The notes under the pieces are model-generated. The model saw only the letters and a program-made list of their open reading frames with translations, searched no databases and was not told the DNA's origin. A DNA stretch of 64,000 nt from Tubiluchus corallicola. Lineage: Eukaryota; Animalia; Priapulida. A program made the translations under genes and the position numbers. The stretch lies in assembly GCA_030141605.1 (NCBI GenBank), contig JAQGDQ010000043.1:372001-436000 (forward strand), in the 5' to 3' direction. Positions 9,001-57,890 of this stretch are shown one piece after another; within the stretch, counting starts at the first letter, position 1, and the number at the start of each line of letters is the position of its first letter.

Positions 9001-12000
9001 ATGTGATAGCTGTAATACCCCAGCAAAATTACTTGAACTAACCATGATATTTAAGTTCTGGTTTTCATTTATACACTTTGTTTTGCCGTTATTTTTAACT
9101 ACATTAATAAGTTGTCCAGGGTTATTTCAAAATTGACAAGCATATTTGCACTCAAGTGCTGTTCTTGACATCAAAGATGTTGCTAGAGTAGGCAATCTGT
9201 ACTCTGTATGTTAATTACCAATGGCAAAGTGCCATTTGCAAGTGCAACCATTGACTAATTTCTTTAGTTCTAGAATCACGTGAATAATTAATTGACGGAT
9301 CAAACAAACAAAGTAATGAAAAAATTATTTATTATAATAATTAAATGATTAAAATGGCCTCAGAATACATGTACTTTTTCGTTTATATGATTATCTGTAG
9401 GCTGTAGGGGAACGACCTCCTGTGTTTGATTCTGGTAGTTATGAAGCGTCTGTACTTGAATCTGCTGTTGAGGGAACCGTTGCCGTCAAGGTTTTTGCAA
9501 TCTCAAACCGCAAAGGCGACAATTTTGTTACTTACAGCCTTACCGCTGATGACGGGGATTTTTCCATAAATCATACAACAGGAGAAATCTTTGTTGCTTC
9601 TCCATTGAACTTTGATCGTAGATCAAAATATGTTTTTACAGTAAGTTCACTTTTGACGTTTTATTTTTAGTTAATGTTAGTGGCTGAAGTATTTGTTGTG
9701 CATTTCCGTTTTAATATGAGTAAGTCAAGAAATTATTTAGATTTATTTTTATTTTTTGGGGTAAAGACTCAAAGAAGTAAAGAATTAATAAGAAATTTGT
9801 ATTTCAAAGTGACAGAGATTTTGATTGAATTGCTTACACTTATTACTCAACCATTTAATGGTAAAGTTTACTAATCACAATTTTCCCCAATTATTTATAT
9901 ATCACCAATTTTTTGTTATACAATTACGAAATATAAAAATTTAAAAGAATAAGCAAGGTAGAACATGCAGCGGCAAGAACTACTATACTGTTACAATATA
10001 CATGAACTAAATAAAATGAGTTTAAAATTGAAATAAAAATCTTTTACAAGAATTTTCGCGACGAGTAAAGGTTGAAGATTAGCCAAAATTCGAGAATTTA
10101 CATAGTTTTTACTTGGAAGAATTATTTTCAATGAGCATTGTTGAACAGTTTCTATCAAATCAGAGAGATTTTGGGAGACAGGTGAGTGCCATACCTGACA
10201 AGCGTGTTCAGCAACTGGTCTAATTATGGTGCACTACATTTTTATCATATCATTAGTCCCTGCTCTTTTCGTGTTAATTGCAAAAGGTAAACTCTTTTGA
10301 ATGGTGTGAGTTACATCCACATTGATAGACCCAAGGTTGTAGTTCTGAAGTAGCATTTTAAATGATAGGTGAGACAAATTGAATATTGTGCATTTGACCA
10401 GAGATTGGTTGGCCCTTGATGCACATGGGTTAAAAGGTTAGAAGTTCCGATTTATTTTTCACTTAAACGAATACAATTCGTAGGTAATCAAGTACGGGCT
10501 TCTGGTTAAAAACTGATAAATTCCAATTTGACTGAAACTATCAGTGGCGAACGTAACAGTGCTTACTCACTATTGTTAATTATTTTGAAAAACATTTTTC
10601 TTTGTTAATGTCACACAAATGCTGTCACTTGTTACAATAGCAGAATTGTACTGCAGTTTTTGACACAGTCAAAAATGTTGTCTAGTTATGTCTTAAACAC
10701 TTGTGACATATAACTGGACTGTTACAGGTATTAGCGATGGATAGCGCTGAACCACCAAGAATTGGGACAGCTAGTATTTCCATTCAAGTTATTGACGTTG
10801 AAGACAAGCCGCCCTTTCCACCACTCATGAATAGTTTCTATGTTCCAGAAGGTATTTTGTATTTCTTTCTTGTTGCTGCATTGAGAGTTAATTTAGTGCA
10901 ACAATAAAGAATGTTTACTATTTACAAGAGCTCTATTATGTATATGAGATATAGCAATTTTTGCCTGGCCTGTAATAGAACTGGGCAGTAGTACAAACAC
11001 ACCCTGAACTTGTTTATCTGCTTTATTTTTTGTGCAACTTCTAGATTAGTCTTCATTATTTTACTATACAGATTAGTTGTACTACTAATTTGCAATTAAC
11101 CTCATGCTTAACTAAGTGACACATAATAATATCTGAAAACCCTGAAAAGTAATTAATATTAATTACATAAAAATGTAAAAGTATGCTGAGATTCTTGACG
11201 AACATTTTGTAGTACTAATTTGTATTCTTTTTGTTTATACAGATTTTAGTGTGGGCTCTTCACCTATTGCTTCTCTGCAGTCACTTATTCCAGCAGGTTA
11301 TCTTGATGATGACGACATTCAGTTACGTTATTCTATTGGAAACGTAACAGCTTTTAGTGATGGGGGTCACCCAGTATCGCCAGACCTGTTCAAATTCTCT
11401 GTTGATGAAGTGACTGGTGATGTGTTTCTTGCAAGTGCTCTTGACAGAGAGGTGGCATCTGTGATTCTCCTTGACATGGAAGTGACTGACATAGCTGCCC
11501 GAAAACAAAGAAATGGAATGGGTAAATTACATACTTTTTATTAGATGAAATGACAAATGTTCAGTTTGAGATTTGCATACTACTCTTTAAGCTTGTGTAG
11601 CTTTATGTAAAAGTATTAACTACTTGATTAAAACCAACCCTAGTTTCTCGCAATAATTATGCTGAAAACTATTATTTGGTTAGGTTAACCCGACCGGCCC
11701 TAATTTTTTACCGCCGAGTGTAAAAGTTTCATTAACGATACGATAAAAAAGAGTTATTTTCCAAATAAACAAATTATAGCACGCCCAACATTCAACAATG
11801 TAAAACAACACAAAATGATAGCTATTTAATGCTGTCGTTGTTGCCATTCCAACAAAAATCTATTCTGTTCAAATGCTTTTTATTTTGATATGCAGTCTAA
11901 ATGGTAGAAGTGTCAAATTTGTATTCAAATTCAATTGATTGCACAGATAATATCGGTTACACTTAAGTTTATTCTTCTCTGGTGGTCTGCCTATTTCTCT

Positions 12001-15000
12001 ATGGAAAGTGAAAACATGTTACACATCATTAGCATGTAGCCGTAGCAGCTAGTCGTTTGTTGATTATATTTTTCCATAATACAGTAATACTAGTTAGCAC
12101 AATATATGTCTCTGTGATTTAAGAAAATAAATCAACAGATCGAAACCTGTTTATGTTTTGACATATTTATTTATTTATTTTAGCTTTAACAAATAATAAT
12201 AACAAATAACAAGAATTCAGAAAACTGAATTCGTGGTTTTTTCACCCCTTACTAATCCAATAACAGATATCTCATTAAAGTAGGTAAAGACATTATAGAA
12301 CAAACAGACACTATCAAATTTTTAGGCGAAAGGTAAATAATAAATTAGATTGGCATAACATTTTAATCAAATCCATAAAAACTGGTAACCAGAATAACTT
12401 GCCTATGCCAAGTTAGAGATCAACTGACAAAACACACAAAAATTCTGATATATAAACAGTAGTAATTCCCCACTTTTTATATGGTTGAATGTTGCTACAA
12501 CCATATGTTAAAATTAAACCCACTTCAAAACTATGCACTAAGACTGACTTCTGGCTACTCCTATGAAGCTCCCACAAAAAAGAACTGTTCAGCAACAACT
12601 TTAAGAAGTTTGTTGTATAAATATATCAATGGTCTCAAAATCCCTTCAGAAATGACAAACATCCTTTCTTGTAAATTACTGATCGAAATTGCCATATTAA
12701 TAACCTAAAGCAAATTCAAACAAACAATAAATTTGGTAATAATTCAGTAGGCAAACAAGCCCTATCTATGAAACTCTCTGCCATCTATTATCAAACAGTC
12801 ACAATAACTGGCTATTTTTAAAAAGAACCTGAAACAATACCAACTAAGTAGATTTCAAAAACCAACTATGTCGTTAACTTCTTTAATTCAAATTTTGTAT
12901 ACCCACATCTCCAACAACTGATAGAGAATAATTATAAATTCGCAACTCATAATTAGTAAATTAAACAGCTGTCTGTAGTAATAATTTTTGTTAGGTTTTA
13001 TATACGAATGTATTGTGTGTATTGTAATAGTTGATGCAAATTTTGCTTACATTTATTATGTATTTTATTTATTATATTGTACGTATGCATTGTGTTATGT
13101 ATTATGTGTATATTGTAATGTACTTTACTAATCGTATGGCTCCTATGTGTAGTATTGTAACTATGTATGTAATTGCTTTTATTTTTAATTTTTATGCACT
13201 AGTAGTTTATGGTTTTGCACCAGATGCATTTGGCTTTCACAGTGTTTAGTACTGAAAGTATTTTTAACACAGAGGATTGTATTTTATTGTAAATTATTTT
13301 TATAGCAAATAAAGTATATGTGTTTATATAATAATAATGAAAAGATACAGCACAATAAATTGCCCGGGAGACCTGTATAAGGTGAAAAGAACACCGCATA
13401 ACATACGGGCCACTACCGACTCGTTTGATTTTTTTTAGTGTTACCCTAGCAAACTAATGCATTTTGTGCTGGTTTTTTCCAAATAATATTTGCAAAACAA
13501 AAGGTTTTGCTCTGTTACCATATTTGTTGGTATCCCATATGCAAATATGAGTTTTGTCAAAAGAGTTCAAGCCATTAATTAGCATTACTAATTATCATTA
13601 ATGACTTCAAATAATAAATTTTGGTATAAATTATTGTTATTAATTTTGAGCACATACTTCATTGTCACACAATTATGTGGATCAGTTAAATGGATTAGTA
13701 AGAAAGTGCCATTATCCAACAAATCCTAGCAACAAAAATGGGTTAGTCAAACAATAATAAAAACTTAGTAAATACATTAAAAGCAACTGTGTTTGATTTT
13801 GATGATTAAGACAGTGATAAGAGTTGAAAGATAAAAGCTGCTAATGTAACACTGTAACGAGTTTTACTAAGATATACGTTGATAAATTTGCATAAATCTT
13901 GTATGTACTATTAGTACCATGTTTGCAAATCTTGCTTATCACTTTGTCTTTTATATTATGCATGACTATGTATGTTACATAAATAAGATGAGGTGGCTAG
14001 GTTAACCTTATTTTTCTGTTTAAATTCTATTAATTTTAAGTTAAGGCCAGGTCTATCATTTTTTGCAACATTCCATTATGGTATCATTCAGAATTTCTTC
14101 TGTGGAAGCCTACATTTGCTTTAATGGGTTTAGCTTTTGTTTCTGGACATTTTATCAACTACAGTCAAAAACGTGTCATAACTGGTGTCGCTCTTTTCAG
14201 ATGATTTTTATTTGGTACTCAAGTTTAGTCCCAATAAATTCAATTGTATGATGAATAGACGGAACAAACGCACACACACTCAGTTTTTCTAGAAATGTGT
14301 GTGTTTTTTCAAACTCTAATTAATTCTCTCAAATTAGCAATTTATTGTGCGATTAAAGTATTTTATCTACAGTGGAAACACGGATGCCTCACCAGGAAGC
14401 AAGAATTGCTTTGTTGTTACTCATTAATGACACCTTTTTATGATTTTTTTTTTACAATATTTTTATGTAATTTAGGAAAGATTGTTATCCACGTTAAAGA
14501 TGTTAATGAGATTCCTCCAGTTTTCTTCCCACCGTGGACTCTGGAAAATCCCTATTATTATACAAGCGTAATGGAAGAGTCTCCTCTTGGAACAGTTGTC
14601 ATAGTGATGGCTGCCATGGATGTAGAATCTGGAATAGCTGAATATGAGTTAACATCGAACCCAAATGATTATTTTGCAATTGATTCTGAAACAGGTGAGC
14701 TTATTTTGAATTTGTTCCACCATTAGAAAACAAAACCCTTGAACTAATAAAGCACTCTTTTAAGGAACGTTTGATATGACAAATTCCTGTAGAAAAATTT
14801 ATGCAAACAGCACAGAAAGATTGAATTTGTAGAGAGCTTGAAGTATATTAGGCTGAACTTAGTGCAGAGTGTTGTAGGTTCAGTCTGGTGGTTGAAACAA
14901 AACTATGAAATTGCGTTGAACTGTGAAAGACTTTATTTCTATTTACATATTACACTATTATTTACAAGCAAGAAGACACATGGTGACCATTCGACAGCAG

Positions 15001-18000: not shown

Positions 18001-21000
18001 AGCTCTGAAGTTTTTATTTGAGATAATGTTAACATATTGTTAGAGACTTGCTGTTCATTTTAACATGCTGTTAGAAATGAAAAACAATCTGAAAATGTTC
18101 GACAACTAAAAAAGAGGTATCAGCGTTACTCGTCCCATAATGCCTATAATGCATATATTCAAGCTAAAGAAGAGTTTAAAAGCAGTTTAATTTCACAAAT
18201 AGATAACTGGATTCTCACTAACTCAGTTAATATGAACTCGTCCAAAGGAGTAAACTTTTGGAAGGCATATCATAAGGTATTTCCTAACATAAAAGACAAT
18301 CAAGTTGACATTTTAAAACATGGTAACCGTTATTATATTACTGATGAGGACAAGTGCAACTTGTTCTATGAAACCTTCTTCATGGGTAACCATTTTGACA
18401 ATGACATATTTGATAACAACTGGAAAGGGTTCGTTGATCAGTTTGTTGATTCCTTAGAATATAGTGAAGGAAACGATGACTTTCTGAATGTTCCTTTCAC
18501 GATGGACGAACTTAATAAAGGAATAAAAGGAAGTTCCTCAAATGGCAAAAGCTTTGATATGGATGGTATCCATCCTCGAATGATTAAAAGTTTAGGATTT
18601 TGGGCCAAATCTGTACTTCTGAATTTGAGTAACATATGTTTAAGCACGCAAGAATGGCCTTGGTTACAATCCAAAGTAATATTTATTAAAAAACAGGGCA
18701 AAGATAAATATGCGGATCCCAATGCATATCGTCCTTTGTCGTTGTCATCCTACATAGGCAAGCTTGTCGAGCGACTCTTTGTTAACCGATTAATTCTAAA
18801 ATGTCCAATGGAGGTATTGGACATTGTACAGGAGAGTTTTGTCGCAGGACACAGTACTGAACAATATTTGTTTCGCCTAATTAGTAAAATGCAAAGTGAC
18901 CTCATAAAGAAACATCCAGCTATCGCTGTATTTTGTGATTTTGAAAAGGCCTTTGACAGTGTGTGGGTCAAAGACCTAATCTTCAAACTGTATCAATTAG
19001 GAATTGCTGGAAAGTTTTTGGCCTTTGACCCACACACTGTCGCTCGATCATTCTCTATCAGTGTAGGAAAATTCTGTTCTCAAGAGTATAACAGTAATAT
19101 TGGCCTCCCGCAAGGCTCTGTCCTTTCACCTCTATTATTCATAATTTTCATCTCAGAAATCCTAAATGATGTAAGATCCAATAAAATGGCAGACGTCTTC
19201 AAATACGCAGACGATGGCACATTTTACGCATCTAAAACAAACTCTGATGAGTGTCGTAATACTGCGCAAATCTGTTGTAATAAGTTACATCTATGGTGTA
19301 AAAAATGGCGGCTGAAAGTCAACTGTAATAGGAATAAAACGGAAGTTATGGTCATGGGGTCTACTCAAAATATAGTAAATAATAATTTGCCTAAATTAAA
19401 AATTGGTGGTAATGAAATTGAATATGTTCAAAATAGTACAGTACTGGGTATCACTATTGATAGTAATCTGAAATTTGATTGCTATACCAATAGAGTTAGG
19501 AAAAATGCATGGCACAAATGGACACAAATTAAGCAACTGTGCTTCAAATACAGAGGAATGAGAATGGCAACTATTATACAACTGTTTAAAACATTTGTAC
19601 TACCTGTTATACTATACAGTGCCAGTGTTTGGTTAGCTAAAAAATATTCATTATTTGATGACTTGTATTATGATGTCCTCAGAACTGCAACGGGTTCATC
19701 CTTTAAACCTTGCAGGGTATTGTTAGAAATTTTATGTGGGTTGCCTCCTTTAGAAATCGAAATGAAAGCTCATAATGTAAGGTTCCTAAGTAAAATATTG
19801 CAGAATGGTGATGATGATCTAGTTAAGAAAGAACTTTTGTATGTATTTAATACTAACTTTTATCTGTCATATAACCACTTTGTAAAATATTATGCTAGAG
19901 ATTTAAGGCAATTTTTGGCTACTACTAGAGATGCAGGGCGAATTAGCAACGAAGAACTTTCTATAGTTAATTGGTCTGTTACAAAATCTGATCTGGATAT
20001 ATTCAAGCAAACTCTTTGGCACAGACAATTCAATACTTATACCTTGTTAGAAAACAGAAATGAATGGTTTGGCATAATCCCACAACTTAAGCCCTTTAAT
20101 TTACCAATTTCACTTACAAATAGAGAGCTGGAATCCATTGCTCTAAGTTTTATTCATGGACAAGGATTTTTTAAACATTTTTTATTACGATTAGGACTCA
20201 TACCTGACAATTCTTGTTTATGTGGTCTTCCTCAAACTTGCGAACATCTACTTTTCGACTGCCCTTTCGTAGACTCACAAAAGCGCATGTTTTTTAAGAA
20301 TAACATTAACACCACTAATATTGCTGTGTTAATTCAAAAGCAAAATGATAGCAGCACTTTGAGCTCATTTGTTGAAGTAATTAGGATGACTTTATTAGAC
20401 AGCAAATGTCAGGAGTATTATGATACGTGTTACTAAACTAGCGGTTGTACTATTGCCATCTTTGTAATTTTAATTAGTAATTTACAGTGTCTAGAGACAC
20501 CTTATTTTATTATTTTCTTAGAAAATTTGTAAAATTTATAATTTATACTTATGCTAATGTTGTACCTGCAAATAGAGGTTTTATTAATAAAGATTTTAAA
20601 TAAATAAATAAAAATGCTGTTAGAGACTTCCCCATTCAGCCATAATGAGCAGTTTTGTTAAAGACAGAAAACAAAATTGTGCCGTAAGTTATGGACCATA
20701 CAGTTTTCAAACAGATGTTGCTGACATTTCTGAAATAGTAAACACGGTGGCAGGTGGATATGTAGCTGTATGATCAGCTAGTAACATCAAGAACAATCAA
20801 TGACAACTTTTGGTTCGTATTTTATAGGTTTTCATTCATTTGCAAGACATAAATGATTCACCTCCAAAGTTCATGAGAACAAGCTACCATGCCATGATAG
20901 TCGAAAACATCCCACCAGATACACCAATTGTACAAGTGTCTGCTACTGATGCAGATACAGGTGTTAATTCTGACATGCGTTATTCTATAGTAGATAGTGG

Positions 21001-44489: not shown

Positions 44490-45240
44490 TTAAACTATCC
44501 ACATCATTGGTCCCAGTTAGAAAAATCAGTTTGTTTATCTACTATTGTCTTCAGGGTCAAAATATGGTCGCTGGTACTATGTCCCCTACAGAAGCCGATT
44601 TGCGAGTTGTGAATAGTCTCATGTTTCTCTAAATAATCTTGTAATCTGTTGTTCAAGATCTTTGCAAACAGCTTACTTATGCAACTTGAAATTGCTATCC
44701 CACTATACTTATTGGGACCATTTTTATTCCCAGATTTGAATATCTGCACAATTAAACTTTCCGACGTTTCCGGGTCGTTACCATTTGGCAAAATCAAGTT
44801 AAAGATCTTGGTAATGCATGGAGCAAAAATGGGATAACTTGTTTTACTAACTAGTTGGTTATGATGTCATACATTCCTGACTTATTGTTTTTGAGACAAT
44901 TGGCTGCCTTTATCACTTCACGGAGTTTCACAGTATAGTCAACTTGAATTCTGGAAACCGATTTGTGTGTTGTTCATTGCATTCATCGTCGCAGCCTGAA
45001 AGTAAATTCTTAAAGTGATCATACATAGTTTTAGGGCTAATATTTTCGTTATTTGACTGGTTGTCAGTGTTCTGGGTCACACTTTTATTTCTTCCCAAAA
45101 TAAGTTTGATTTTCATGTTTCAGGAGATTTGTGACTAGGGAATTTTTGAATGCTCTATATTTTTGTTGTATCAGAGCTTCAAAATGCTTTTCCGCTTCGA
45201 TATGATTTTTCATATACTAACCCATTTTCAAATCCGACAA
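44490..45240 (-). mobile_element. Decayed LINE RT fragment (RTEX/CR1-like)
   Basis: IFKSGNKNGPNKYSGIAISSCISKLFAKILNNRL..QIGFCRGHSTSDHILTLKTIVDK. Confidence 0.8.
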
Positions 45241-48463: not shown

Positions 48464-48559
48464 CAAAAGGCTTCGTCAAAGTTGATATATAACTAGAATA
48501 ACTACCTTTAATAACAACATCGTATTTCTTCATGTTATCACAATTTCGCAATGCTTAGC

Positions 48560-48590
<31 letters not shown>

Positions 48591-48612
48591 TCAACTTTGA
48601 CGAAGCCTTTTG
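48464..48612. repeat. Perfect 25-bp inverted repeat enclosing (TA)n
   Basis: CAAAAGGCTTCGTCAAAGTTGATAT (48464-48488) vs its reverse complement at 48588-48612. Confidence 0.85.
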
Positions 48613-49316: not shown

Positions 49317-49402
49317 GTATAAAAGGGGAGATGAAAGCAAAGATTAGTCACTATTGCTTTTCACGTGTGGGAAACATACGCTTCCTGGGCAACACGAGCA
49401 AG
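49317..49402 (+). promoter_or_regulatory. TATA box, Inr and non-coding first exon of Gly-rich gene A
   Basis: GTATAAAAGG at 49317, TTAGTC Inr-like ~27 nt downstream, donor AAG|GTAGTT at 49403; acceptor ttctag| at 50150. Confidence 0.6.
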
Positions 49403-50151
49403 GTAGTTTTACCAAAATTTATTATTATTTTTCTTATTTCTCTTAGACGCAACTTTTTCAAAATGTCAGCGCCTTTTGACTGTATGGAATAGTTTTATTT
49501 TGGTTTAAAAAAATTCTAGGAATTTTAACAATAATATGTACAAAAAGTCCATGCTGAACATGCAGAGTAACTACTGTTTTTTCCTTTTTTTGCCGCCTCT
49601 TTCTCCCTGCTTCTTGTTTTTTAATTTCTTTCTCCACCCTTAATTCTTCCGTCATTTTTCTTTCCGTAATATTTTTTAACCGTTTTTCCTCTTTTTCTTT
49701 TCTTTTTTCTTTATTTTTGTTTTTCTTGTTCGTTCTTTCTTTATTATTCCTTTCTTGTTTCCTTTGACACTTCCTTCTTTCTCGTCTTCCTTGATTCATT
49801 TTTTCGTCTTTACGGGCTTTCTTCAAAGCTACATGTAGTTTTTATTAAATATTGATACTTGTTTGTAATCGTGACGTGCGAAGTGAACTCTTGTACTATA
49901 GTTTCAGCACAACCTTCACAGTAACAGACCTGGGTCATAGTAGCAGGTGACAGGATAAATTTTAGGCTGTATTGTAGCAGACGTCATACCAGGCTATAAA
50001 GATCGGTTTACTGTGCTAGCTATTGTGCTTTTGTGTGACGGAAAATAGGGGTAAAGAATGTATTCATTGGAATGATCGGTCGTGAAAATAATTACTATTG
50101 CTGCAATGACTATAATAAGTGCGAATCATAGTTTATTATTTTGATTCTAGG

Positions 50152-51108
50152 ATGCAGTGTTTTTCCGTAGCCGTTCTGTTAGCATGCATTGCTCATGTCA
50201 TCAGCGATGCTAATGGTCCTGAAGGTATAGCTGGTGTGCAGGGAGGAGGATATGGTCAACGCCGTAGTGGCGGTTCCACGCGGTTTGACCTAGGACAATC
50301 TGGCTTTGACTTGATGAATGTTCGTGGACGTAGTACAGGCCAGACACACGTACAACAGCCTACCCAGTTCAGTGGTTCATCACTTCAGACTCTTGGAGGA
50401 GGCAGTCGTCAAACATCTTTCCAAAGTAGAGGTTCAGGATCATTTGGTGCATCATCGTTTGGTGGGTCATCAGGTGGCAGCTTTAGTGGTTCTTCTGGAG
50501 GGTCCTTCGGTGGTTCCTCTGGTGGTTCATTTGGGGGTTCTTCAGCTTCCTCTCAATTTTCTTCTGCTGGTTTACAGGGCTTCGGCGGTGGAAACATTGA
50601 TCCCAATAACTTTGGTAATATCGACGCTGAAGCATTTGGCTTTGAAAACTTTGGCAACAACTACATCAACGTTGAGGACTTTGACTTCAATCAATGGAGA
50701 AACGATGCGGCTAACCTAGCCCCAAGAGAAGCCGTTAACGCTGCCCAATCGGAGCAGGTGGTCATTGGAACAAGGTTCCGTTCAGGGTTTGCTCGTCAGA
50801 ACGAGAAGAGTGAACAGGTCAGAGAAGGGTCTGGAAGTGGAGAAGCTGGTATTGAACTCAGTGCCTCACGGGAAGCTAGCCAGGATGCTACCCAACAATA
50901 CACACAGTCCGCTTCAGGAGAAGGTAAGACAGAACAGGGTGCAGCATACGGATACCAGAGAACGCCTAACTTGCAGTTCCAAGCTGTTCAACTTGAATCT
51001 CTTCCAGTTCACTCAGGACCCGCTAACACCCTGCCATCAAGTGCAAGAACAAGATCTTCATCTAGAACTATTGGGGGTGGAAATCAGCAGAGAGGATACG
51101 GCAATTAG
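50152..51108 (+). CDS. Secreted Gly/Ser/Gln-rich protein A (318 aa), uncharacterised; paralog of 53689-54375
   Basis: ATG directly after an acceptor; signal peptide MQCFSVAVLLACIAHVIS; (GGSSGGSF)n repeats; domain shared with protein B; GC-richer than the flanks. Confidence 0.88.
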   Translation: MQCFSVAVLLACIAHVISDANGPEGIAGVQGGGYGQRRSGGSTRFDLGQSGFDLMNVRGRSTGQTHVQQPTQFSGSSLQTLGGGSRQTSFQSRGSGSFGASSFGGSSGGSFSGSSGGSFGGSSGGSFGGSSASSQFSSAGLQGFGGGNIDPNNFGNIDAEAFGFENFGNNYINVEDFDFNQWRNDAANLAPREAVNAAQSEQVVIGTRFRSGFARQNEKSEQVREGSGSGEAGIELSASREASQDATQQYTQSASGEGKTEQGAAYGYQRTPNLQFQAVQLESLPVHSGPANTLPSSARTRSSSRTIGGGNQQRGYGN

Positions 51109-51954
51109 TTACCCTTGCGTCATTCTCAGTATTAATGGCGGCTCGTTTCTGGTGTTTTTGGAAAATCTAACAAGGACAAAATGTCTTTATGTTCATGATA
51201 ACTTCCCTCTTTTTTGAGCTTTGGGAATCACATCGCAGACTGGGACATCAAAACTTCAGTAGCTTGTTCAGCTCATGTTTGAAGATAGCTTTAGATCTGT
51301 TAATAGATAAAACGACTTAAATCAAAGAAGTTGATTTCATACGTGTATTTATATAAAGCGAAGTCAAGTGACAAATGTTGATATCATTGAGTGTATCCTT
51401 CACGTGTAAAGCAATTGTGACAAACAAGGCCATACTATGTACATATAATTATTAAAATAAATAGAAACTAATTTGCAGGAAAAATATTTTTGAGTATGAT
51501 TACGTAAGTATTGTGAAATGTTATTAGAATTTTTGCGATTTCTTCAGCAAAAGTTTCATTTGCCAAAAGGCCAAAGTTTGTTTCAGCTTTGCTGCGAAGA
51601 GACAAAAATCAGATCAATAAAATTAACCGGTAGCAGCAACATCGACGACGAAGAAGACGACAACAACAGTAAGGACAAAGACAATGACAAGAGAAAAGCA
51701 AAAACATCAATAACTACAACATCTGTAACAGCAACAACTTCAAAAGCTGCAACAACAAGTACCATAAAAATCACAACAGCAGTAGCAGCAGAAGTACCAA
51801 CAAACTGAAATGACAAAATATTATAAAACTTAATTTCTAGTAGTAATATCAATACAGCATCTTTATCACAAACACGCATTAAAAGGAAAACAGTAGGAGT
51901 GAAAAAAAGGGAAAACTGAATTATCCATATTATATATGGGCAAATAGATGCAAC

Positions 51955-52223
51955 TACATCAAAACTGAATTTATTGCCGACCGGTTGCTACTAACATGTT
52001 TGTTTGTTTGTGGAGTGTAGCATAGTTTCATAGAAATCAAAATACGTAATCTGCAAGGTAAAATGCTGAATTATCTATATAATGTTATTTCATATATCTT
52101 TTGGCTATCTAACTACTGAATTTCGACGTTGTTTCTCAATTCTGGTAAATTTCTTTCTTTTAGATGCCTTGACAATGAACAGTTTGTTCGAAACCGGATG
52201 GCAATAAATTCAATTTTGATGTA
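51955..52223. mobile_element. ~270-bp element bounded by 32-bp inverted repeats, containing a Penelope-type hammerhead-like motif
   Basis: TACATCAAAACTGAATTTATTGCCGACCGGTT vs AACCGGATGGCAATAAATTCAATTTTGATGTA (29/32 complementary). Confidence 0.7.
52165..52203 (+). ncRNA. Degenerate minimal type I hammerhead ribozyme-like motif
   Basis: TGCC-TTGACAAT-GAACA(GTT)TGTTC-GAAA-CCGG-AT-GGCA: stem I, variant core, 5-bp stem II, GAAA, palindromic stem III; the inverted copy retains the GTC triplet. Confidence 0.45.
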
Positions 52224-53688: not shown

Positions 53689-54375
53689 TTAGTGACCATA
53701 TCCTCCTCCGTAACCACCGCCTCCATGCCCATAACCTCCACCACCTCTACCTCCATAGCCTCCGCCGCCATGGCGACCTCCACCATAGCCACCTCCGTGT
53801 CCGTACCCCTTGTTGACTGGCTTCCCATATTTGACTTTTGGTTCCTTGACAGGGACTGGTTGATATCCTATTTGTGGGTATCTCTTGAATTGATAACCAG
53901 CTCCTGATCTAGTGTCACCGTGTGTCTTGGCTCCCTGGCTGTACTGTTGATTGGCATATTGTTTAGCCCATCTGGAACCTCCGACTTGTACTCCGCCAGA
54001 TCCGGATCCTTTTCCGGATCGATCCCCTGCAGATCCAGTAAACTGCCCAGCATTCCCGGATTTGTACTGACGCCCAATAACTCCAATTCTTGTTTTGGGT
54101 TTAGAGTCAGCTGGAGCATCTCGAGCTGCATCATTGCGGCCCGCTCGGAAATCGTATGCTTCTAGATCCACGTACTCTGCTCCATAGCCTCCACCGCCAA
54201 ATCCACCTAGAGTCAATTTGCTGAAAGCATTGAGATATTCATCAGTGGGAGCGTCATCTCCAAATGGAGCAAATCCACCCTTTCCACCATAGCCTCCATA
54301 GTAACCACCTCCACCACCGCAAAGAACGCCAGCAATACAGCCCAGCAATATAGACGAGACTAGGACCTTATTCAT
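53689..54375 (-). CDS. Secreted Gly/Tyr/His/Lys-rich protein B (228 aa), uncharacterised; paralog of 50152-51108
   Basis: Acceptor ttgcag| at 54387-54389, ATG at 54375; signal peptide MNKVLVSSILLGCIAGVLC; GGY/GYGH low-complexity termini; domain shared with protein A. Confidence 0.9.
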   Translation of the reverse strand: MNKVLVSSILLGCIAGVLCGGGGGYYGGYGGKGGFAPFGDDAPTDEYLNAFSKLTLGGFGGGGYGAEYVDLEAYDFRAGRNDAARDAPADSKPKTRIGVIGRQYKSGNAGQFTGSAGDRSGKGSGSGGVQVGGSRWAKQYANQQYSQGAKTHGDTRSGAGYQFKRYPQIGYQPVPVKEPKVKYGKPVNKGYGHGGGYGGGRHGGGGYGGRGGGGYGHGGGGYGGGYGH

Positions 54376-55198
54376 CTTTAATGTGCCTGCAACAGCAAGA
54401 AAAAAAATCAATATAATAAAACAGCAAGACGCCTTTATGCTTAATTAAGCAAAGTGTTGTTCTCTCTTTCAACTTTAGTCGGCTGTAGTTTGGATATTTT
54501 ATACTTATTCGGGTTGCATACTTTAGTTGTATCTCCGATAGTGCCCATACTATTACTGTTTTATATGAGTTGACAGTATGTGGATTGGTGGTAAACCGCA
54601 TGGTACATGCACCTATTAAAATCTAATACAGTGATAAAGAGAAGCATCAAAACGCTTGTTGCAAATAATAAAACTCACTGGCCCTTTTATTACTGTTGTG
54701 TTTTGCTACTGATCATGTATTACGATATTTTTTCTGCTTTATCTTTTTGTAATTTACCTAATAACATTTTTTAAATGAAATACTTTTGCATATACCCAAA
54801 TTATTCTCACAATAAAATGATGTTACTAAATTCAATTTTAGCTAATCATTTTTCAATATGAGATTATGATCAGATCTGCGCTTAATAGAATATATGTCAT
54901 TAGAAAGAGAGAGTTAATCAAAATTGTATTAAACATCATAATAATTATGATATTATTATATTATTAAACTTACATGTGACATTATATTAAACTTTTTCGA
55001 TTTTTCATTAGACGCATTTAGTCAATTAATACATTTCATACTAGCAGTTTGAAACTATTACTGTAACTATAACTTTTATATGTACTAGTTGTAAACGCTT
55101 TTCATTATATAATAATTATTACAAAGGCAAGGTATAAATAAATTCTTTAAAGACAGTAACATAATAAAGTAAAGTTAAATTGTGTAGTTAAAACTTAC

Positions 55199-55290
55199 CG
55201 GTTAGCAGTGCCAAGTCTAACCGTTGAATTGTACGACTCACACGAGTTAAGCAAAAGGTGTCTCTTACCTGCGATGGCAGACATTTTATA
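55199..55290 (-). promoter_or_regulatory. TATA box and non-coding first exon of Gly-rich gene B
   Basis: TATAAAA on the minus strand at 55284-55290; strong donor CCG|GTAAGT after 55199. Confidence 0.65.
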
Positions 55291-56374: not shown

Positions 56375-56495
56375 CGGATTGGTTGGTTGATTAAATGAAT
56401 GATTGATAGATTGACTGGTTGGTTGGTTGTTTGATTGATTAATTGATTGGTTGATTGACTGATTGATTAACTGATTGATTAACTGACTGACTAAC
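56375..56495. repeat. (GATT/GGTT)n tetranucleotide microsatellite
   Basis: Directly visible. Confidence 0.85.
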
Positions 56496-57302
56496 AGATT
56501 GCTGGTGTCTCAGTTGTCTTAAACAAGACGTATTGGTCAGGCGGTCAAAACAAAAATTAATTGAGAGCATCAAATTTGTTGTAAAATCAATTTGTGGCTG
56601 TTTTAAATATTCAATTTTAAGCTTTCGTTTAATGTTTATGTTCTATTGGATACTAACTAAGTTTGCATTTCAAACACGTATCTTTTTTCTTGTGTTATGA
56701 TACTTATGATATCATTATTGACGTTTTAGCAGATAGGGTAAAATGGGCTAATGTCGGACAATGAGCTTTACTTTTTGCTTAAACCCATTAAATTACTTGC
56801 ACGTTATTTTTTCTTGTCATTGTTAATACTCACACAACATCTTTAGACTGACATATTCGCCATTGTCTAGTAGTTTCTTCTAGCAGCCATATGGCCGTGA
56901 ACATAAAGCTCGCTCAGTGAGTACGGTTATCCTTAACTGTATTAACTTTTTTTTTTACTTTCTGCTTTCATGCCACACTTTGTAGTTTTAAAGCATCATA
57001 TTTGTTTCTTTATTGTACAGCTCACTCAAACAGTGTCCGACTTTACCCAAAAGCCTAAGTTAATGTCGGAGAATTGAATTTTTGTGTCCGACTTTGTGTA
57101 AGTAAATAACATAGATTTTTGGCCATGTGAGTCTAAATGTAAAAGTAACATTTTCTTAATTGTTTTAGAAACGTCATCGAAACGCCTAGAAAGAAAAACT
57201 GCTCAAATATAAAAAACTTAAAGAATAAGAGAGGAAAAAGGGGAAAACTTCAGCAGTGCAGCTCTGATCAAATGCAATCTGCCGTCAAATCTAATGCAGT
57301 CT

Positions 57303-57413
<111 letters not shown>

Positions 57414-57427
57414 ACCACGCACGCCCA

Positions 57428-57890
57428 TATTGCACAAGCATTTTGTCGTTACTTGAGTATTATGAAAATCGATAATTTTTTATCTAAATTTTACATTAGT
57501 TAGTAATATTATTTGTCACTTTTAAAGGCAAAATTTTGTCATGTATATCTGCTACGACTGTTGTCATGGCAGAGGTTCAGCAGATTTATATCGTGGCAGT
57601 GCGTAGGGGTGTGCGTGCGCGCGCGCGCGTGCGTGCGTGCGTGCGTGCGCACGCACGCACGCACGCCCATACGCACTGCCACGTATGCATAAATCTGCTG
57701 AACCTCTGCCATACGACAACAGTCGTAGCAGAGTTTTATACATGACAAATTATGCAAGTTTTTGCCTTTTAAAAAAGTGACAAATGAAAATATTACTAAC
57801 TTAATGTAAAATTTAGATAAAAAATTATCGATTTTAAAAAACATAATAAACTCAAAGTCTATAACACAAGACAAAATGCTTGTGCAATAT
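57428..57890. repeat. ~460-bp fold-back palindrome centred on a (GCGT)n/(ACGC)n tract
   Basis: ATATTGCACAAGCATTTTGTC... left arm mirrors ...GACAAAATGCTTGTGCAATAT right arm over its length, with essentially no spacer. Confidence 0.9.

Follow-up and report, generated by a model that had tools for sequence, protein, structure and literature searches.

Two genes in the window (the whole 64-kb stretch of DNA that was analysed), here called A and B, encode members of a new protein family without a known Pfam or PDB relative, and at the heart of these proteins lies a 67-residue core in which conservation alternates from one residue to the next, in a single phase. A and B are paralogues in this family, which is likely priapulid-specific, and both are intact and under purifying selection. 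On balance, we read the family as likely secreted structural proteins whose cores would form long beta-sheets of fixed length with the conserved face buried, probably in the cuticle.

Table 1. Coordinates of the features in the window, with the basis of each assignment.
Feature	Positions	Strand	Remarks
Gene A, coding exon	50152..51108	+	318 aa; signal-like start, then an arm rich in Gly, Ser and Phe, the conserved domain and a short C-arm
Predicted signal peptide of A	50152..50205	+	From hydropathy only; the cleavage site is an estimate
Upstream motif of A, conserved, predicted short helix	50674..50724	+	AlphaFold models and conservation angle
Period-2 core of A, 67 residues, gap-free (inferred long beta element)	50761..50961	+	
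C-terminal conserved motif of A	50974..51021	+	Follows a short indel-tolerant linker
TATA box at 49318, then a short non-coding first exon with its intron (49403-50150), all predicted for A	49318..50150	+	Sequence motifs only
Gene B, coding exon	53689..54375	-	228 aa; signal-like start, arms rich in Gly and Tyr, and the conserved domain
Period-2 core of B, 67 residues, gap-free	53881..54081	-	
TATA box at 55290, then a short non-coding first exon with its intron (55198-54387), all predicted for B	54387..55290	-	Sequence motifs only
Cadherin-repeat gene, scattered exons	about 900-31245	+	Weak sub-threshold PF00028 matches at 11179-11541 and 14259-14723
Reverse-transcriptase (RVT_1) retroelement	18064-20433	+	790-codon open stretch; above cut-off
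Carbohydrate sulfotransferase, large exon	32409-33386	-	Sulfotransfer_2 (PF03567), E 1.4e-49
RVT_1 short fragment	44507-44866	-	Sub-threshold
Simple repeats (TA, T-rich, four-base, CA runs)	48553-48601, 49683-49752, 56376-56498, about 57220-57470		Spurious ORFs arise there

The two genes are convergent, with 2.6 kb between them. In each, the single coding exon directly follows a site resembling a splice acceptor; upstream lie a TATA-like box and a donor-like site. The first exons are predicted from these motifs; no spliced read supporting that of A was seen, and the TATA box of B is one of five TATA-like sites in the window, picked for the donor site behind it. The N-terminus of A reaches its top 10-residue hydropathy, 2.86, at residue 4. 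No third copy was found within the window, whose DNA is AT-rich (GC 0.29-0.41), and no link between the sulfotransferase exon and the family was shown. Between A and B, at 51982-52179, many contigs of run X2 join on opposite strands, which suggests a short high-copy inverted-repeat element.

In a gap-free alignment of A (50761-50988, plus strand) with B (54081-53854, minus strand), 33 of 76 positions are identical; 24 of these are odd-numbered and 9 even-numbered (p 0.014 in a binomial test, 0.001 in Fisher's). The earlier note had drawn attention to this bias and to the absence of Pro from positions 1-68; both observations held, the first Pro standing at position 69 in A and in B, and the bias sharpens with more members while keeping one phase over 67 residues. 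Survival of the periodicity in added homologues had been set beforehand as a test, and the pattern came through in 18-19 members with no phase slip. The periodic block comprises positions 1-67 (50761-50961), and positions 68-76 carry indels across the family. Its 67 columns are contiguous and gap-free in all 18 aligned members, and the 19th fits without gaps.

Across the 18 members, weighted entropy was 0.94 bits at odd columns versus 1.98 bits at even columns (Mann-Whitney p 2e-7; none of 100,000 permutations was as extreme), and with 19 members the values were 0.93 and 1.98 bits, the difference being significant in every third of the core. The odd columns came out as the better conserved in each of 14 sliding windows (18 members), and 29 of 33 even columns were more variable than their odd neighbours (19 members), the exceptions being 8, 30, 32 and 60. 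Spectral power at 180 degrees reached 1217, with the next peak at 80 (18 members), and the Gly clusters at 23-27 and 53-55 stay in the odd phase. The motif just upstream served as an internal control and peaks at 90 degrees, as a helix would, not at 180. Odd identity exceeded even identity in all 153 pairs of members, and in all 120 when A and B were left out; among disjoint pairs, nine of nine differed less at odd sites (55 odd versus 147 even differences, p 2e-11; P0016 was unpaired). With the G/A columns removed, odd and even entropy were 1.13 and 1.97 bits (p 9e-5). A period-2 pattern in one phase is the mark of one face of a beta-strand, and the alternation of residues makes it very probable that the core is in an extended beta conformation.

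The homologues of A and B number 17, giving 19 proteins in all. A search with the conserved region of B returned a single relative (P0001, 68% identical to B over the searched region and joined to it by a starred branch in the tree), a profile of the A/B domain run against 1.84 billion representatives returned 16 proteins, and a second profile made from 18 domains returned nine, one of them new. The weakest match in the A/B-profile search had an E of 9e-10, and the interval from there to 1e-3 was empty. Eight of the 17 homologues bear a species name, in every case Priapulus caudatus, with uninformative automatic names, so that this species has at least eight paralogues; the other nine are Logan proteins. 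Judging by these names, the host of A and B is probably a priapulid as well. No homologue was found among proteins of 1093-3120 residues in a weak search confined to that size range. Pfam gave no family above cut-off for any of the 18 cores or for whole A and B, only sub-threshold matches of single members, and a sequence search of the PDB gave no match at E up to 10. The shared core that the earlier note had recognised in A and B is real. Beyond what the note saw, the two belong to a multigene family; its proteins combine signal-like starts with low complexity, and every named member comes from a priapulid.

Each of the 19 proteins has one copy of the core, with 98-436 residues ahead of it and 4-172 behind, and the conserved domain keeps the order upstream motif, 67-residue core, indel-bearing linker and C-terminal motif. 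A signal-like hydrophobic start was recognised by hydropathy in 13 of the 19 and no second hydrophobic stretch in any; the six records that lack such a start are probably incomplete. The arms are low-complexity, with Gly making up 8-30% across 18 proteins, and core identity between members ranges from 25 to 88% (median 49%). Most members have another conserved stretch, rich in Phe, Gly and Asn, before the helix motif (50590-50665, plus strand, in A), which is not in P0014, P0015 and P0016. The family tree is poorly resolved: of its 16 branches two are starred, one joining B to P0001 and the other P0014 to P0015. The divergent pair P0014/P0015 shows joint changes on the conserved face of the core (a smaller residue at 31 with a larger one at 43; an acidic one at 17 with a basic one at 45), possibly compensations.

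Evidence on selection came from run X1, which we took for RNA by guess only and used as contigs, without reading depth as expression. Its contigs include a relative of A across 50221-51165, and several further contigs match the domain at lower likeness; that X1 does not cover B is given no weight. In the two main pieces of this relative, 52 of 56 differences from A could be classed, and residue-changing codons made up 0 of 11 in the core, 2 of 9 in the conserved flanks and 11 of 30 in the arms. Six of the silent changes in the core lie at odd positions and five at even ones. Between A and B, 18 of 30 identical residues use different codons. Because the same residues are written with different codons and core changes are silent, constraint acts on the protein.

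Structure prediction contributed less. Two AlphaFold2 monomer runs on alignments of 18 sequences placed no strand in the core (pLDDT 35-49, pTM 0.20-0.22), and both models made the upstream motif a helix (pLDDT about 70-76). Taken at face value, this check, which the earlier note had proposed, goes against a beta core; we weigh it lightly because 18 sequences and a pTM of 0.2 make for poor models. Atlas models of two homologues were likewise poor (pLDDT 0.36) and gave no usable feature match, a Foldseek search against the PDB returned no match for an AlphaFold2 monomer whose confidence is too low for this to be meaningful, and a four-copy complex prediction of the A domain, which scored 0.00 with its alignment unused and its fold uncertain, weighs neither for nor against. 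The average propensity of the core for beta is not high, at 0.93 against 1.00 for alpha.

Geometry was approached through self-similarity. A direct internal repeat in the core (family-wise p 0.40 at any offset), a palindrome or reverse similarity (p 0.64) and self-pairing by knob-into-hole volume complementarity (family-wise p 0.52) were all non-significant, and a 16-residue echo (R5/R21/R37; I31/F47/Y63; offsets 16 plus 32) was weak (family-wise p 0.085). Pairing near i+j 72-74, with Gly opposite Phe, Tyr or Arg, reached a z of only about -1.2 and was rejected as evidence. Since the repeat, palindrome and complementarity tests were non-significant, a hairpin, a long strand, a barrel and a serpentine are indistinguishable. 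The proposal of the earlier note, one constrained face of an extended beta structure, thus gains from the period-2 pattern in the homologues and nominally loses from the strandless AlphaFold monomers.

The two faces differ in composition. All 18 cores together hold no Cys and one Pro, and Ser and Thr make up 20% of the whole core. The odd, conserved face is 43% Gly and Ala, 24% Gln and Arg and 9% Phe and Tyr, with a net charge of +3 to +5 in 17 of 18 members, and it carries the conserved Arg residues at 5, 7, 21 and 37 and seven of the eight invariant columns (G3, G9, A11, G25, G27, G55 and Y63; the eighth, S8, is even). The even, variable face is 33% Ser and Thr and 18% Glu and Asp, its net charge runs from -7 to +4 (the latter in B), and it is the more hydrophilic (-1.2 versus -0.5). 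A hydrophobic patch lies at 27-35 (mean 1.96), near the middle of the core.

In the reading we favour, the protein would be secreted via its signal-like N-terminus, and the cores would align and polymerise; the product would be a sheet, a ribbon or a tube within extracellular material. It is likely that the conserved G/A/Q/R/F faces of different chains would pack against one another and be buried, with small Gly and Ala positions accommodating F, Y, R, I and L. The S/T/E face would be exposed and free to vary; the fixed core length would let different paralogues fit one lattice, and a single chain would have no fold of its own. In favour of this, no indel occurs in 67 columns down to 25% core identity, while flanks and arms vary. 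Against it, no self-pairing register was found, the face to be buried is net positive, and because the even face of B is positive as well, no simple charge pairing covers all members. The site would somewhat more plausibly be cuticle (body wall, teeth, scalids and lorica are proposed) than egg coat or adhesive; by analogy, the Gly-rich arms would serve as a soft matrix, and B-type members would be cross-linked through their Tyr-rich arms. A bolder version, which we consider doubtful, would make the core one unbroken beta-strand of about 67 residues, or a two-armed hairpin, with many paralogues co-polymerising into a sheet, ribbon or beta-barrel tube of fixed length; this would be a polymer fold new among animal materials and would make the family the counterpart, in priapulids, of the arthropod cuticle proteins. 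A beta-strand rises 3.3-3.4 Å per residue, and the core would measure about 22 nm as a single strand and about 11 nm as a two-armed hairpin.

The conserved face could also bind polysaccharide: in a role like that of the R&R domain in arthropod cuticle, the core would lie along chitin, or along an acidic glycan, in the form of an extended strand or a sheet. We regard this as unlikely, though compatible with the secreted structural reading and not exclusive of it. The face would suit such a role, with flat Gly/Ala, hydrogen-bonding Gln/Arg, the aromatics F47, Y63 and F65 and a net positive charge; no self-complementary register was found in the core, and a signal, GGX arms and a single conserved domain are the plan of a cuticle protein. 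Chitin is present in priapulid cuticle. A passage of PMC8588615 links chitin layers with the scalidophoran lorica. Against this role, PF00379 and all chitin-binding Pfam families gave no match at E up to 1, and binding to a homopolymer alone leaves the absence of two-residue indels unexplained. A further alternative, which we judge improbable, has the core as an in-register cross-beta amyloid rung or a beta-solenoid of short strands and turns, as in chorion or curli, serving in egg coat, adhesive or cuticle. Like the chorion domain, the core is rich in Gln, Ala, Gly and aromatics, Pro-free and indel-free, and the faint 16-residue echo would fit; the lack of a significant internal repeat would not. 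Turns usually shift which parity is buried, but here parity never shifts over 67 residues, both Gly clusters holding to the odd phase, and in-register stacking would pile the near-invariant R21 and R37 on one another.

Another alternative is a secreted pore-forming or antimicrobial protein whose core would refold into a giant beta-hairpin and build a membrane barrel with its S/T/E face to the lumen. In its favour one may set the length of the core (67 residues) and its Ser and Thr content (20% overall, 33% on the variable face) beside the values for aerolysin-family hairpins, and point to the hydrophobic patch near the middle. We nevertheless hold this very improbable, as the second strand of any such hairpin would be polar: in a test without a positive control, the best minimum hydropathy was -0.12 for A and 0.06 for B, stayed at or below 0.74 in 18 of the 19 proteins and reached 1.2 in P0016. 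Moreover, R37, Q41 and Q49 hardly vary on the face that would meet the lipid. According to a passage of PMC3110756, the pore region of aerolysins alternates without sequence conservation, whereas here one face is strongly conserved; aerolysin, MACPF and attacin families gave no match, and no cap or receptor domain was found. An aerolysin-type membrane hairpin failed the two-strand hydrophobicity test, and the earlier note was right in its caution against claiming one. That the pattern is an artefact, produced by descent from a hexanucleotide repeat, by the Gly content or by the profile used in the search, we find barely credible, and it is largely refuted. The profile behind most homologues was indeed made from A and B, and Gly-rich columns are often conserved, but the pattern persists when A and B are left out, when only close pairs are compared and when the G/A columns are dropped; the gap in E values marks the homologue set as not marginal, and the synonymous core changes fall on both parities.

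Among the matches listed in a search of openly accessible papers on priapulid cuticle and structural proteins, no description of priapulid cuticle proteins or of the family was found. PMC10280001 is listed with no occurrence of "cuticle", and passages of PMC8588615 and PMC11793982 provided general context only on the scalidophoran cuticle. Priapulids are an early branch of the moulting animals, and a candidate matrix family makes it testable whether they build their cuticle on a protein scaffold that shares no ancestry with the R&R proteins of arthropods or the collagens of nematodes. An indel-free, one-phase stretch of 67 residues has the length of aerolysin-type pore hairpins, yet here it belongs to a low-complexity protein of material type whose conserved face is polar, and solving the structure of the core could reveal a novel mode of beta self-assembly with uses in biomaterials.

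Fibroin is built on Gly-X alternation. With silk-like proteins, as described in passages of PMC4944945 (which make no mention of priapulids), the family is comparable in its arms and shares a Gly-rich, modular, secreted design, including Gly on one face at 23-27; unlike them, it has a single non-repetitive core domain of fixed length and no tandem repeat. The internal imperfect repeats typical of curli-type beta-solenoids were not found (p 0.40 at any offset; 0.085 for 16 plus 32). A passage of PMC4823867 gives aerolysin-family pore hairpins as 75 +/- 8 residues with 23-44% Ser and Thr, mostly lining the lumen. The core resembles these (lysenin has a 74-residue pore hairpin) in its alternating length and in having one face rich in Ser, Thr and acidic residues, and differs in the absence of a lipid-compatible two-strand tip, of the fold and of a receptor or cap domain, and in that the opposite face is conserved and polar.

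According to a passage of PMC12426002, insect cuticle proteins carry one conserved domain along with a signal peptide and GGX repeats. With the CPR, CPG and Tweedle proteins the family shares a predicted signal peptide, GGX-type arms, a single aromatic-bearing domain, many paralogues and a moulting animal as host; unlike CPR, it matched neither the R&R domain PF00379 nor other cuticle families. Moth chorion proteins, as portrayed in part of PMC13252134, have one indel-free 51-residue central domain, variable flanks and many paralogues and form cross-beta serpentine filaments; the same text describes the domain as hydrophobic, with Pro, and as disfavouring polar and aromatic residues, whereas the core of the A/B family is polar, Pro-free, 67 residues long and strictly period-2. 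No chorion Pfam family matched, and the composition of the core differs from the one given in that text. By the tests run the family is a member of none of these groups; of the systems compared, it would work most like the moth chorion proteins, sharing with Lepidopteran chorion A/B a multigene organisation, a single indel-free Gly-rich central domain and variable flanks, here together with signal-like starts.
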